Source of the DNA: Escherichia coli
Lineage (GTDB): Bacteria; Pseudomonadota; Gammaproteobacteria; Enterobacterales; Enterobacteriaceae
Strand: one strand, 5' to 3'
Length of the DNA: 64,000 nt
Assembly (NCBI RefSeq): GCF_013315695.1
Contig: NZ_CP054353.1
This document shows, piece after piece, positions 240-36,614 of the stretch; positions within the stretch are counted from its first letter, which is position 1, and the number at the start of each line of letters is the position of its first letter. The notes beneath the pieces are model-generated. The model had not been told where the DNA came from and did no database searches. It saw only the letters and a program-made list of their open reading frames with translations. The position numbers and the translations under genes were made by a program.

Positions 240-1559
240 TTAACCGTGTTTATTTTTCAGTTCAAAGCGTGGTGATACCAGACCATACAGTGTCCAACCA
301 AGGAAGGTCACGATGGAACCGTACAGCATGGCTTCTTCCCCGGATGAGTACAGCGCATAGAAACTGTACATCGCACCAACAAAGGCAACAAAGTTTGCTA
401 CTTTCGCTTTTGACGGTGGCACATTGGCGACCTGCTGAATAATAACTAATGCTGCCATCGACAGAATATACGGGATGATATTGGTCACCACGGCCAGGTT
501 AACCAGCACGTTGAACTGGCTGTTCAGTGACGGGCTAATGGTCATCAGTGCCAATCCACTCTGAATAATCACAATGGTCAACATTCCCTGAACCGGTGCA
601 TCCACTTTGGTTACACGGGAGAAAATTTTAGGGAAGTAGCCTTCATCAGATGAAGATTTAAACACCTGGGCAATGGTGAACTGCCAGCCAAGCAGTGAAC
701 CGCAGCAGGACATCACCATCAGCGCCATAATGACTTTACCCACTTCTGGTGTGAACATCTGTGCGAAGACCAGGCCAAATGGTGCCGTTGAATTTACCAG
801 CTCCATATTGGGCACAATCCCGGCAATCACGTTGGTGGAGACGATATAAATCACTGCCGCACCTAACGTACCGCCAAGGACTGCTATTGGCACGTTACGT
901 TCCGGGTTTTCCACTACTTCGGCGTTGGCACAGGCTGACTCCAGACCAAGGAAAGCCCACAACGTCATAGCGATGGAAGAACCTACAGCGCTAAAGAACG
1001 GCACATGGTGCGGGTTCCATGAGTTAGCGTACAGCGTCGGGCTAAACCAGAACCAGCCGATAATGCACAGACCGACCACCGGAATGATTACCCCCCACAC
1101 AGTAATGCTACTGATTTGCCCGGTAATGCGCGCACCACCAAAGTTAGCCACGGTACAAATCCACAGCACCCCGATGGTCGCAAGACCAATCTGCACTGGT
1201 GACAAACTTGCGCCGAGCAATTCGGTGCCGTAACCAACCGCCGAAATAGCAATTGCGACGTTAGCAATCAGCAGCGAGACACCGTAGGTGTAGTTCGCCA
1301 TAAAGTTACCGGATTTACCGAAAGCATACTCGGCATAACCGCCCATACCACCTGATTTACGGCTGAACATGCCGCATTTTGCGAATGCCCATGCCAGCGC
1401 CATTGAGCCTACGGCAGTCACCAACCAGGAGATTATTGAGATTGTCCCAACTTCGGCAAGCTTTGTCGGCAGCATGATGATACCGGAGCCCATCATGTTG
1501 ACCATCGTCAGTATGGTTAACTGAACGACGCCCATTTTGTTCGATTTAGCCTGACTCAT
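240..1559 (-). CDS. potE: Putrescine-ornithine antiporter (APC family)
   Basis: 439 aa ORF with multi-pass membrane composition; recognised as PotE; sits immediately downstream of speF with a 4-nt overlap, as in the speF-potE operon. Confidence 0.93.
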   Translation of the reverse strand: MSQAKSNKMGVVQLTILTMVNMMGSGIIMLPTKLAEVGTISIISWLVTAVGSMALAWAFAKCGMFSRKSGGMGGYAEYAFGKSGNFMANYTYGVSLLIANVAIAISAVGYGTELLGASLSPVQIGLATIGVLWICTVANFGGARITGQISSITVWGVIIPVVGLCIIGWFWFSPTLYANSWNPHHVPFFSAVGSSIAMTLWAFLGLESACANAEVVENPERNVPIAVLGGTLGAAVIYIVSTNVIAGIVPNMELVNSTAPFGLVFAQMFTPEVGKVIMALMVMSCCGSLLGWQFTIAQVFKSSSDEGYFPKIFSRVTKVDAPVQGMLTIVIIQSGLALMTISPSLNSQFNVLVNLAVVTNIIPYILSMAALVIIQQVANVPPSKAKVANFVAFVGAMYSFYALYSSGEEAMLYGSIVTFLGWTLYGLVSPRFELKNKHG

Positions 1560-3754
1560 AATTTTTCCCCTTTCAACAGGATGCTTTGCGCATCACGAGG
1601 CTTGATGACATAGCACCAAACTTGCTTACGACCATCATGTTCTTCGATATAGACACCCTGAAGCTCCGGTGCAAAACCTGGCAGCAGGTTGATCCCTTCT
1701 TCCAGAGCGCTGAAGTAACGCAGAACAGCACCACCCCAGATTTCACCCGGAACAACACACAGCACACCCGGAGGATAAGGAAGCGCACCTTCTGCAGCGA
1801 TACGGCCTTCTGCATCCGGCAGACGAATCAGCTCCACTTCACCGCGTAAATAGGCGTGGTTGGCTTCTTGTGGATTCATGCTGACGCGTGGGAAGTGTTC
1901 CTTACGAAACATCTCTTTTTGCAGTTGTTTCACGTTGTGACGGGCATACAAATCATGCATTTCCTGACACAACTGACGCAGGGTATAACCGGTGTAGCGC
2001 TCTTCATGCTGTTTGTAGATGGAAGGCAGTACTTCTGATAATGGCGCGTCGGACTCAAGCAGTTTTTCGAAGCGTACCAGCAGAGCAGCAAGTTGCTGAA
2101 GTTTGGCCATATCTTCTGCCGGAGTCAGCAGAAAGAGGATGGAGTTAAGATCGCATTTTTCCGGCACTACGCCATTTTCGCGCAGGAAGTTAGCAAGAAT
2201 CGTCGCGGGTACACCGAACGCTTCATATTCACCGTTACGTGCATCAATACCTGGGGTTGTCAGCAACAGTTTGCACGGATCGACAAAGTATTGATTCTCT
2301 GCATAGCCTTCAAAAGAATGCCAGTGCTCACCTGGTACAAACTGGAAGAAGCGCAGATCAACCGCAATTTGCGCTGTTTCATACGACTGCCAGGGTTTAC
2401 CATCCACCAGTTCAGGTACGAATGGACGAATATGCTGACAGTTATCGAGGATCAGTTTGCGGGCATTAATGCCATTTACCACACAATCCATCCACATATT
2501 ACGACCGCTGACACCTTCATGCATTTTGGCGTTGATATCCAGTGCGGCAAACAGCGGATAGAACGGGCTGGTGGAGGCATGCATCATAAAGGCGTTGTTC
2601 ATGCGTTTGTGCGGTACATAACGCTGTTGCCCTTTGATATGGCAGTCTTTTTTATGGATTTGTGAAGTCTGGGAAAAACCAGCCTGCTGTTTATGCACAG
2701 ATTGCGTAACCAGAATACCCGGATCGTTCTCATTAAGATCCAGCAACAGTGGTGAACAGTCCGCCATCATCGGGATAAACTGCTCATAGCCGACCCATGC
2801 GGAGTCAAAGAGGATGTAGTCACACAGATGACCAATTTTATCCACCACCTGACGGGCGTTATAAATCGTACCGTCGTAAGTGCCTAGCTGAATAACGGCG
2901 AGGCGGAAAGGACGCGCCTCTTTTGCCCGCTGCGGTGCGACTTCTGTAATCAGTTCGCGCAGGTAATTTTCTTCGAAGCAGTGGGCATCAATACCACCGA
3001 TAAAGCCATACGGGTTGCGTGCGGTTTCCAGATAAACCGGTGTTGCACCAGCCTGTAGCAACGCTCCGTGGTGGTTAGACTTATGGTTATTACGGTCAAA
3101 CAGCACCAGATCACCCGGTGTCAGCAGGGCGTTTAAAACCACTTTGTTGGAAGATGAAGTGCCATTTAGAACGAAGTATGTTTTATCGGCATTAAACACT
3201 TTTGCCGCATGTTGCTGTGCAATGCATGGCGCGCCTTCGTGAATCAGCAGATCGCCCATTGCCACATCCGCGTTGCACAAGTCAGCACGGAACAGCGCCT
3301 CACCAAAGTATTCTACAAACTGATTCCCCGCCGGATGGCGACGGAAAAATTCGCCGCCCTGATGACCGGGGCAATCAAACGCGCTGTTACCCTGATTGAC
3401 ATAATCGACCAGTGCGCGGAAGAAGGGCGGGCGCAGTTGAGTTTCATAATGGCTGGCTGCGGTTTCTAACTGACGACCATAAAATTCTCGTCGCGATTCG
3501 CAATTCTCAAAGACACCCGAAATACGGGGCAAATACTCTGCGGGTACACGTTCTTGATTTTCAGTAGCAATAAATACCGGGATGCCATAACCCGTGGCAT
3601 CGATTTCATCGAGTTTTCCGCGTGTAACATCGTTGAGCGATAAAACTATTGCCGCCACATCGATATTACTGTTTTCATTAATATAGATACATTCTCGCTG
3701 CGTGGTAAAACAGTCCGGGCAAGAATCACTAACCGCAATTTTTAATTTTGACAT
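1556..3754 (-). CDS. speF: Inducible ornithine decarboxylase (PLP-dependent)
   Basis: ORF track gives 1556..3832; start moved to the internal ATG at 3754 (MSKLKIAVSDSCPDCF...), matching the SpeF N-terminus as recalled; fold-III decarboxylase family. Confidence 0.93.
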   Translation of the reverse strand: MSKLKIAVSDSCPDCFTTQRECIYINENSNIDVAAIVLSLNDVTRGKLDEIDATGYGIPVFIATENQERVPAEYLPRISGVFENCESRREFYGRQLETAASHYETQLRPPFFRALVDYVNQGNSAFDCPGHQGGEFFRRHPAGNQFVEYFGEALFRADLCNADVAMGDLLIHEGAPCIAQQHAAKVFNADKTYFVLNGTSSSNKVVLNALLTPGDLVLFDRNNHKSNHHGALLQAGATPVYLETARNPYGFIGGIDAHCFEENYLRELITEVAPQRAKEARPFRLAVIQLGTYDGTIYNARQVVDKIGHLCDYILFDSAWVGYEQFIPMMADCSPLLLDLNENDPGILVTQSVHKQQAGFSQTSQIHKKDCHIKGQQRYVPHKRMNNAFMMHASTSPFYPLFAALDINAKMHEGVSGRNMWMDCVVNGINARKLILDNCQHIRPFVPELVDGKPWQSYETAQIAVDLRFFQFVPGEHWHSFEGYAENQYFVDPCKLLLTTPGIDARNGEYEAFGVPATILANFLRENGVVPEKCDLNSILFLLTPAEDMAKLQQLAALLVRFEKLLESDAPLSEVLPSIYKQHEERYTGYTLRQLCQEMHDLYARHNVKQLQKEMFRKEHFPRVSMNPQEANHAYLRGEVELIRLPDAEGRIAAEGALPYPPGVLCVVPGEIWGGAVLRYFSALEEGINLLPGFAPELQGVYIEEHDGRKQVWCYVIKPRDAQSILLKGEKL

Positions 3755-4011
3755 TTTCCAACTCTTTATTTTTGGTAATAGCAGGTCCTCAATTTCTCGA
3801 ATGAGAAATCGATCGTGCCGGAAAAAAAGCAAAGTTACCCCGCTGATAAATTAATCAGAAGTTTGCTTTTTTCAGAATGCAGAAACCCTTATCAGTCCGG
3901 TGGCTGATAATACAAGGGTTAACAGAGAATGAGCACTGCGGAATACAGGCATATGCCTGTAATACAGAGAGTCAGGAAGACCTGTACGCTGAAGTGCCCT
4001 TAGTCGGTAGA

Positions 4012-4116
4012 CTAACGGGCATTGAAGAAGTGAAAGTCGAAGCTATTGCGATGAGCAAACTTCATAATATGAGTTGTCCGCCTTATATGGGGCATAGTGC
4101 GGCTGTTATTTTCCAT
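4012..4116 (-). CDS. speFL: speF leader arrest peptide (ornithine sensor)
   Basis: Minus-strand 34-codon ORF read by hand: MENNSRTMPHIRRTTHIMKFAHRNSFDFHFFNAR*, located in the speF 5' leader. It is below the ORF-track size cutoff. Confidence 0.85.
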   Translation of the reverse strand: MENNSRTMPHIRRTTHIMKFAHRNSFDFHFFNAR

Positions 4117-4349
4117 TTAATTTACCTTTCCTGATGTGAATGAAGGTGAAGGTATTCTATCCAGGAAATACGGTTGAACTGTGAAGGTGATCAATAAAAA
4201 ATGATCAATCTTAATTTATTTAATGATGAGCTTTTTACTCAGTAATATAAAATATTGAATTGTTATTTTTGTGTGTTGTTTAAGATAAAAAGCCGTATTT
4301 ATTATTACGGCTTTAATTAATAAAAGGCAGGATGTATTAAAATTAATAT

Positions 4350-5027
4350 TCAAAGCATAAACCGATACCCAATACCGGTTTCAGTAATGAAATGGCGGGG
4401 GCGGGCGGGATCTTGCTCCAGTTTTTGTCGCAGATGCCCCATATAAATACGCAAATAATGACTGTGTTCGACCGCGTTTGGTCCCCACACCTGATTGAGT
4501 AACTGGCGCTGGGTGAGCACTTTTCCGGCGTTGTTGAGCAGCACGGCCAGCAGGCGGAATTCAATCGGCGTGAGATGCACCTCTTCCTCACCCCGGTGAA
4601 TCACGCGGGCGGCTAAATCGACGGTCACATCGGAAAATTTCACCAGCGGATCGGGCGCGGTGGTGGCGGAGTGGCGGCGTAAAGCGACGCGCAGACGGGC
4701 CTGCAATTCGCCAATGCCAAACGGCTTACTCAGGTAATCATCCGCTCCGGCATCCAGCGCGGCGATTTTGTCGCTCTCTTCGCTGCGTGCGGAAAGCACA
4801 ATCACCGGCACCGCGCTCCACTGGCGCAGGTCGCGGATAAACTCAATCCCATCACCATCGGGCAGGCCGAGATCGAGAATAATCAAATCTGGCTTACGGG
4901 TTGCCGCTTCCAGCAAGCCGCGTTGCAGCGTTTCGGCCTCAAAGACGCGCATCCCGTCGCCCTCCAGCGCCGTGCGCAGAAAGCGACGAATAGCCTGTTC
5001 ATCTTCAACAATCAGAACGTTTGTCAC
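4350..5027 (-). CDS. kdpE: Response regulator of the Kdp two-component system (OmpR family)
   Basis: 225 aa; receiver domain (DLGLPDGDG) plus winged-helix C-terminus; 4-nt overlap with kdpD. Confidence 0.95.
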   Translation of the reverse strand: MTNVLIVEDEQAIRRFLRTALEGDGMRVFEAETLQRGLLEAATRKPDLIILDLGLPDGDGIEFIRDLRQWSAVPVIVLSARSEESDKIAALDAGADDYLSKPFGIGELQARLRVALRRHSATTAPDPLVKFSDVTVDLAARVIHRGEEEVHLTPIEFRLLAVLLNNAGKVLTQRQLLNQVWGPNAVEHSHYLRIYMGHLRQKLEQDPARPRHFITETGIGYRFML

Positions 5028-36025: not shown

Positions 36026-36614
36026 AACGCTGTCCTGAAATATAGACGTTAAACAACCCCCTGTATTGCGAGGGTAATTTTGTCTTTCCGGTCAGCAGCC
36101 AGCAAAAGGGAAAGAAAACGCGCGTAGTGTATGTGGCGATAGCAAGTTTTACAAGTGGTAAATCTGGCTTATTGTTAAAGAGGAATTATCTTTTGTGAAG
36201 TCTTTTAAGGCCATGACTCATTCAATTTAACCGGACATAGATAATATATAACATAGGGTATATAAATTTATCATTGTATACTTGTCATAATTCAAGTTGC
36301 ATGTGCTGCATCGATGTTCGCTCACCCAGGTCACTTACTTATGTAAGTTTCTGGAAATTCATTATTTGTTCCCTTCCTGCAACTTGACTTATTTAGAGTA
36401 TATTCATGTATATGAATAATATTCTTGCAATAATAGCTTTAAAGTATTGCATGCGGATAACTGAGGTGAAATTCCTGTTTTAGGATTATTGTCACTTTAT
36501 TTTCCTGGTTAGACATATAGCTGACTGGTTTGTTTATTTGAATTATGATATTCATTAGTGCTACTGTTTTTTATAAAATAATTTTTGAATTGTTATTTTT
36601 TCACGGACGGCATT

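Follow-up and report, generated by a model that had tools for sequence, protein, structure and literature searches.

The closest described system is the leader peptide gene speFL of Escherichia coli K-12, whose sequence, identical to the one considered here, was studied by Herrero del Valle et al. and gave ornithine-dependent, puromycin-resistant stalling of ribosomes whose P site was at codon 33 or 34 (10.1101/604074). Residues 1–13 of SpeFL form a sensor domain, with the motif HIRRXXH at residues 10–16, that traps one L-ornithine against the 23S rRNA; residues 14–34 form an effector domain built on Phe20, Phe26, Phe28, Phe30 and Phe31, and Asn32 pushes U2585 into an RF1-blocking position (10.1101/604074). 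Point mutations of H10, I11, R12, R13, H16, F26, F28, F30 and F31 abolished or impaired stalling, and a double-frameshifted speFL lost ornithine-dependent stalling altogether (10.1101/604074). In the same study, a speF'-lacZ fusion preceded by speFL and a 257-nt spacer was under Rho-dependent control, sensitive to bicyclomycin, in K-12, and the authors described a rut site overlapping speFL, a role for the stop-codon hairpin, and a contribution of the rare Arg codons 12 and 13 to keeping ribosomes off the rut site (10.1101/604074).

In Salmonella, Ben-Zvi et al. (PLoS Genet 2019; PMC6386406) mapped the transcription start 31 nt upstream of the AUG of orf34 (AUG at +32), with AGGA as the orf34 Shine-Dalgarno sequence and a Rho-terminated short transcript of ~157 nt. 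Compensatory mutations confirmed that the 3' part of orf34 pairs with the speF ribosome-binding site to form a helix; when orf34 translation was abolished or truncated, Rho-dependent termination followed and the speF ribosome-binding site stayed closed. Unmasking of that ribosome-binding site, as well as a layer involving arginine and RNase G, were also described (PMC6386406).

We analyzed a 64,000-nt stretch of E. coli DNA (hereafter, the window), in which the gene order is kdpE–speFL–speF–potE, all on the minus strand, with the kdpE stop at 4350 and the speF ATG at 3754. A first-pass annotation had placed a 34-codon ORF at 4012–4116; these coordinates were exact, stop codon included, and the peptide it quoted matched the translation of the minus strand (MENNSRTMPHIRRTTHIMKFAHRNSFDFHFFNAR). 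The strand, which it had left unstated, is minus, as for speF and potE (Table 1). Alignment with annotated speFL of E. coli K-12 MG1655 (b4803) revealed zero differences across the whole ORF, with DNA and protein both 100% identical, no frameshift and an unaltered C-terminal arrest motif, in agreement with the name speFL that the annotation had given. The layout in K-12 is the same, speFL lying 257 nt upstream of speF on the same strand. Furthermore, the SpeFL chain in the cryo-EM structures of the ornithine-stalled 70S ribosome, 6TBV/6TC3, was identical to the window peptide at 34/34 residues (E = 7.6e-20), and RefSeq/PGAP applies the name "leader peptide SpeFL" (speFL) to the same ORF, between kdpE and speF, in genomes with a 100%-identical leader. 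We conclude that the 34-codon ORF is almost certainly speFL, the arrest-peptide leader gene of the speF–potE operon, in its K-12 sequence form, and we found no evidence in this analysis contradicting this identification. The gene is already known and annotated; it is an ordinary feature correctly recognized, and no discovery.

Table 1 Features of the speFL–speF–potE locus in the window.
Feature	Position	Strand	Details
speFL coding sequence	4012..4116	(-)	34 codons plus TAG stop (4012-4014), ATG start; ORF list and translation
HIRRTTH ornithine-recognition motif (HIRRXXH), codons 10-16	4069..4089	(-)	codon list; motif per 10.1101/604074
Rare Arg codons 12 and 13	AGG 4081-4083, CGG 4078-4080	(-)	codon list
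Effector domain, codons 14-34	4015..4077	(-)	Phe20, Phe26, Phe28, Phe30, Phe31, Asn32, Ala33, Arg34 present
Shine-Dalgarno region AGGAAAGG, purine-rich	4125..4132	(-)	8-15 nt upstream of speFL ATG; assigned by position only
Inferred promoter-proximal region	4147..4159	(-)	TAGAAT -10-like hexamer 4154-4159; start tentatively near 4147
Stem-loop UGCCC-G-UUAGUC-UACC-GACUAA-GGGCA	3995..4021	(-)	predicted; spans last two sense codons and speFL stop
C-rich, G-poor stretch	3991..4060	(-)	40-nt windows: C 11-13 vs G 5-7; overlaps speFL 3' half and hairpin
speFL-speF spacer, 257 nt	3755..4011	(-)	identical to K-12 at 4011-3899; 10 differences at 3898-3758
5' arm of predicted long-range helix, speFL codons 27-31	4025..4038	(-)	minimum-free-energy pairs
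3' arm of predicted sequestering helix, speF Shine-Dalgarno/start region (AAGAG..UGGAA..AUG GUC)	3750..3766	(-)	
speF, inducible ornithine decarboxylase, 732 aa	1556..3754	(-)	intact: K-12 length, no internal stop
potE, putrescine-ornithine antiporter, 439 aa	240..1559	(-)	intact: K-12 length, no internal stop; overlaps speF stop by 4 nt

The statement that size-filtered ORF calling misses speFL proved correct, as a default 60-aa filter would skip an ORF of 34 aa. The sole Pfam match was PF10940 (Leader peptide SpeFL), which scored 23.8 bits (E = 4e-5; gathering cut-off, 25); because the K-12 reference peptide has the identical sequence, this shortfall is a property of the model or its threshold and not of the ORF. 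A search of the 34-aa peptide against NCBIfam returned zero matching HMMs, and the SpeFL name in RefSeq must therefore stem from another rule. Similarly, an Rfam search of 3600–4400 at E values up to 1 returned zero families, the enterobacterial speF leader having no Rfam family.

Translation showed that Pro9 directly precedes the recognition motif (P9-H10-I11-R12-R13-T14-T15-H16), and codons 12–13 read AGG-CGG, as in K-12 and Salmonella. The effector domain is Phe-rich and closes with NAR at its C-terminal end, followed by the UAG stop.

Comparison of 606 nt (3755–4360) with K-12 revealed 12 differences: positions 4332 and 4152, upstream of speFL, and ten sites of the distal spacer (3898–3758). 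The intervening 253 nt (3899–4151) match K-12 at every base. They run from the presumed transcription start through the ribosome-binding site, speFL and its stop-codon hairpin, cover the expected Rho termination zone, and end 113 nt beyond the stop. Three of the spacer differences (3773, 3761 and 3758) lie within 20 nt of the speF ATG and adjoin its ribosome-binding site. The length of the spacer is the same as in the K-12 reporter construct, 257 nt (10.1101/604074).

A scan of 3700–4400 for sigma-70 consensus promoters gave zero matches; we therefore infer the promoter position only from the Salmonella start site and from the block TGGATAGAATA, which lies in the putative promoter region and is kept between two otherwise diverged E. 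coli haplotypes (see below). By analogy with Salmonella, transcription might start near 4147, 31 nt upstream of the ATG, a tentative placement; if so, the end of the ~157-nt Salmonella transcript would correspond to ~3991 in the window. Just past kdpE, at 4289–4314 on the minus strand, we observed a hairpin resembling an intrinsic terminator (AAAGCCGTAATAATAAATACGGCTTT with a T-rich tail), presumed to be the end of the kdp operon, which would insulate the speFL promoter from read-through.

The predicted stem-loop over the speFL stop codon is a candidate pause hairpin for RNA polymerase. In this hairpin, 87% of cells were paired across 37 Enterobacteriaceae leaders vs 27–43% with slid partners, and three pairs changed on both sides, chiefly from C-G to U-A at the outermost pair. 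The C-rich stretch at 3991–4060 is, by composition only, a candidate rut site and Rho termination zone. The leader as a whole folded better than shuffled sequences (z = −3.7), and the minimum-free-energy folds of three sequences (window, K-12 and alternative E. coli haplotype) all contained a helix between speFL codons 27–31 and the speF ribosome-binding site, which corresponds to the one validated in Salmonella (PMC6386406). We also observed a terminator-like stem-loop and T-run (AGCGGGGTAACTTTGCT TTTTTTCCGG) within the speF leader, at 3822–3877 on the minus strand (core 3828–3844), kept in both E. coli haplotypes; its core lies ~75 nt upstream of the speF ATG and is part of a longer predicted hairpin, GAAAAAAGCAAA...UUUGCUUUUUUUC.

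Both downstream genes are close to their K-12 counterparts, SpeF with 13 and PotE with 8 amino acid differences, and both score above the NCBIfam equivalog cut-offs (SpeF against TIGR04301, 1427 bits, cut-off 1310; PotE against NF007938, 851 bits, cut-off 409). As a separate observation, divergence from K-12 is mosaic across 240–4360, DNA identity being 100% in speFL, ~98% in the leader, 96.4% in speF and 94.5% in potE, and over a 1.2-kb segment of speF just 88 genomes reached 99% identity or more with the window. This pattern suggests recombination within the speF locus.

Every published cis element is present in the window: the sensor motif, the rare codons, the effector, the hairpin, the C-rich stretch, the 257-nt spacer and the predicted helix. 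Given identity with the tested K-12 sequence over 3899–4151, these elements would be expected to act in this strain as they do in K-12, and the steps proposed below are taken from the published work on that sequence and on Salmonella orf34. Transcription of the leader would begin at a promoter immediately following the kdpE terminator, and the 34 codons would be translated. At low ornithine, the ribosome would terminate at UAG and leave, exposing the C-rich rut region over the 3' half of speFL; Rho would then terminate transcription just past the stop-codon hairpin, keeping speF–potE off. At high ornithine, one L-ornithine would be held between the 23S rRNA and the N-terminal sensor (Pro9, Arg12 and Arg13 within HIRRXXH), the Phe-rich C-terminal effector would compact, and Asn32 would displace U2585, blocking RF1. 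The ribosome would stall with Arg34 in the P site and the following ribosomes would queue behind it, masking the rut site and letting transcription run on into speF–potE. Translation through codons 27–31 would also open the helix that sequesters the speF ribosome-binding site. The first-pass annotation had described ornithine-dependent control of speF–potE as intact in this strain, and sequence identity supports this reading as far as the cis elements and the intact speF and potE genes are concerned; the annotation named the ornithine layer only, and two others have been described in Salmonella (PMC6386406).

We surveyed conservation with the first 250 SpeF residues as the query, fetching 80 speF-like loci from one-genome-per-species contigs, 79 of which were usable. 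A SpeFL-like uORF was found in 74 of the 79, and, with the window's own, in 75 of 80 leaders from Enterobacterales and Aeromonas, including Citrobacter, Salmonella, Enterobacter, Kluyvera, Raoultella, Hafnia, Edwardsiella, Morganella, Proteus, Serratia and Yersinia. The consensus of 37 distinct 34-aa peptides was mENNn..mpHIRR.tHiMm..hR..FdFh.fn.. (capitals invariant, lower case at least 80%): HIRR and H16 were invariant, and F26 and the FdFh.fn core were conserved. The first Arg of HIRR was encoded by AGG in 54 of the 75 leaders, CGA in 11, AGA in 7 and CGG in 3, all of which are rare codons in E. coli.

A clear SpeFL uORF was missing at five of the 79 loci (L055, L058, L064, L065 and L083), at three of which none was detectable within 900 nt; these five could be paralogues or cases of lost regulation. 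The other two, in Yersinia proxima and Aeromonas veronii, had degenerate SpeFL versions (HIQR..., or no MENN start). Two further loci are unusual in other ways. In strain NR2550 (L005, NZ_AP040168.1), an IS1 abuts a 5'-truncated speF, the 5' part of speF and the leader are missing from the fetched stretch, the upstream neighbor there is gltA and not kdpE, and potE is left without promoter and leader; as read from this arrangement, the locus appears to be a natural loss of the speFL switch. A 2225-bp contig labeled 'MAG: Collinsella sp.', an actinobacterium bin (L006, JAIJJM010000551.1), carries an E. coli-type speFL–speF with an identical SpeFL peptide, a 257-nt spacer and a SpeF 99% identical, and most likely reflects contamination of the metagenome bin.

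When positions 3700–4360 (661 nt) were megablasted against complete E. coli genomes, a match was obtained in 1708 of 5426 genomes. Widespread absence of the leader was considered as an explanation and rejected, the cause being a second, diverged leader haplotype. Complete E. coli genomes thus hold two deeply diverged speF leader haplotypes, the window belonging to the minority K-12 type (at least 80% query coverage in 1700 genomes) and the second type reaching the same coverage in 3318. The alternative haplotype (e.g., ESC53083 and JX21CE33; SpeFL WP_001312672.1) has a peptide of the same length with the same motifs, rare Arg codons and TAG stop; the pairing predicted for the speF ribosome-binding site, like the stop-codon hairpin, is the same as in the window. 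Its SpeFL carries two substitutions relative to that of the window, S5N and T7L, neither within a published motif. The spacer of this haplotype measures 309 nt against 257 nt in the window, owing to a dispersed-repeat insertion of ~51 nt, and the flanks are heavily diverged. Within speFL, 15 of 105 bases differ between the haplotypes, 12 of them at third codon positions, and 11 codons differ synonymously and 2 non-synonymously. This substitution pattern argues for strong purifying selection on the SpeFL peptide.

Aligned over 3755–4360, the window and two majority-haplotype loci (L003:1259-1946 and L004) were identical in ~82% of leader alignment columns, with the peptide almost unchanged. The extra ~51 nt of the majority haplotype (L003:1735-1794) are a dispersed repeat, of which E. 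coli genomes have a median of 4 occurrences, and the ends of the insertion match the ends of an element of ~125 bp at 36277–36399 of the window. That element contains ...AAGTAAGTGACCTGGGTGAGCG... and resembles an ERIC/IRU repeat; the regulatory leader of the majority haplotype thus seems to contain an ERIC copy with an internal deletion. In majority-haplotype genomes (L003:1420-1554, L004:1419-1553), RefSeq lists a 44-aa 'hypothetical protein' encoded on the speFL strand and overlapping the speFL start; the annotations of K-12 and of the genome with a window-identical leader contain no such entry.

Several other readings of the locus were weighed against the identification as speFL. The ORF could be intact and regulation nevertheless differ quantitatively from K-12 through the polymorphisms in the distal spacer and at the speF ribosome-binding site, a possible outcome being weaker sequestration of that site and higher basal translation of speF. 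We regard this as unlikely, although it can draw on the ten differences at 3758–3898, of which three are no more than 20 nt from the speF ATG, and on a drop in the predicted probability of the sequestering helix from ~0.9 in K-12 to ~0.3 in the window, ensemble values that come from thermodynamic prediction over 423 nt and are soft. The helix remains the minimum-free-energy structure in the window, the relevant A-to-G change converts an A-U pair to G-U and creates no mismatch, and the haplotype is common in nature, the leader at 3700–4360 being 100% identical over 661 nt in at least 20 of the complete E. coli genomes listed and at least 99% identical in 260. A further reading is that the uORF acts through translation alone, by Rho protection and unmasking of the ribosome-binding site, with a peptide whose sequence is irrelevant and no arrest. 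Translation itself does matter, since its loss in Salmonella orf34 led to Rho termination and a closed ribosome-binding site (PMC6386406); the published toeprints of the frameshift and point mutants already refute irrelevance of the peptide (10.1101/604074), and the excess of synonymous over non-synonymous changes (11 vs 2) and the near-invariance of the motifs across genera speak in the same direction, making this reading very improbable.

An 85-aa ORF (3877–4134, plus strand) runs antisense to speFL and the proximal spacer; that it is the true gene, and the 34-codon ORF its accidental shadow, is scarcely conceivable. The antisense ORF is the longer of the two and is open in both the window and K-12, but it is broken by stop codons in the alternative haplotype (3318 genomes), current RefSeq annotation of K-12 lists no gene there, and, in the minus-strand frame, the bases that differ between haplotypes occupy third positions. 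We rejected it as a gene on the basis of the stops in the majority haplotype. We give the same negligible credence to speFL as a chance ORF without function. ORFs this short are common by chance (98 of at least 20 aa in 6 kb in the ORF list), and the significance of speFL must therefore come from sequence comparison; such comparison shows a peptide identical to one characterized experimentally and structurally, with position and sequence conserved upstream of speF across genera, by which a chance origin is already refuted.

speFL is too short for many gene callers, and once it is recognized the speF leader is no longer taken for empty intergenic sequence; beyond correct annotation, this recognition matters little here. 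At the sequence level, the strain keeps the cis elements, the enzyme and the antiporter of an ornithine-inducible polyamine module. Mildly new material is found solely at the population level, in the coexistence of two deep leader haplotypes in E. coli. These two old haplotypes, together with the window's sub-variant near the ribosome-binding site, may set different basal or ornithine-induced speF–potE levels between lineages, a suggestion we consider speculative and rather doubtful. If true, the haplotype differences would represent natural tuning of an arrest-peptide switch, and we have seen no examination of such tuning.

Among the known systems, K-12 is the nearest: its 105-nt speFL coding sequence and 34-aa peptide are identical to those of the window, and gene order and spacer length are the same. 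The Salmonella Typhimurium uORF orf34 likewise has 34 codons, two successive arginine codons being AGG-CGG; Rho terminates transcription shortly after this uORF, and a long-range helix joins its 3' end to the speF ribosome-binding site (PMC6386406). The type strains of Salmonella enterica subsp. diarizonae (L015) and arizonae (L016) carry MENNNRFMPHIRRTTHIMMFAHRNSFDFHFFNAR; the Salmonella peptide differs from that of the window at residues 5, 7 and 19, and the Salmonella spacer is longer (speF AUG at +516; 378–379 nt in L015 and L016). The stop codon of S. Typhimurium orf34 is UGA according to a legend in the paper (PMC6386406), whereas that of the window is UAG, and the arginine/RNase G layer has been shown in Salmonella only. 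TnaC of the tnaCAB operon, to which SpeFL has been likened, follows the same logic: release-factor action at the stop codon is blocked by a leader peptide together with a free amino acid, and Rho cannot terminate transcription because the stalled ribosome covers a rut site (10.1101/604074). The TnaC peptide is unrelated, however, and both its ligand, L-Trp, and its binding site differ, with RF2 acting at UGA in TnaC and RF1 at UAG in SpeFL; TnaC is thus an analogue of SpeFL and not a member of the same family.
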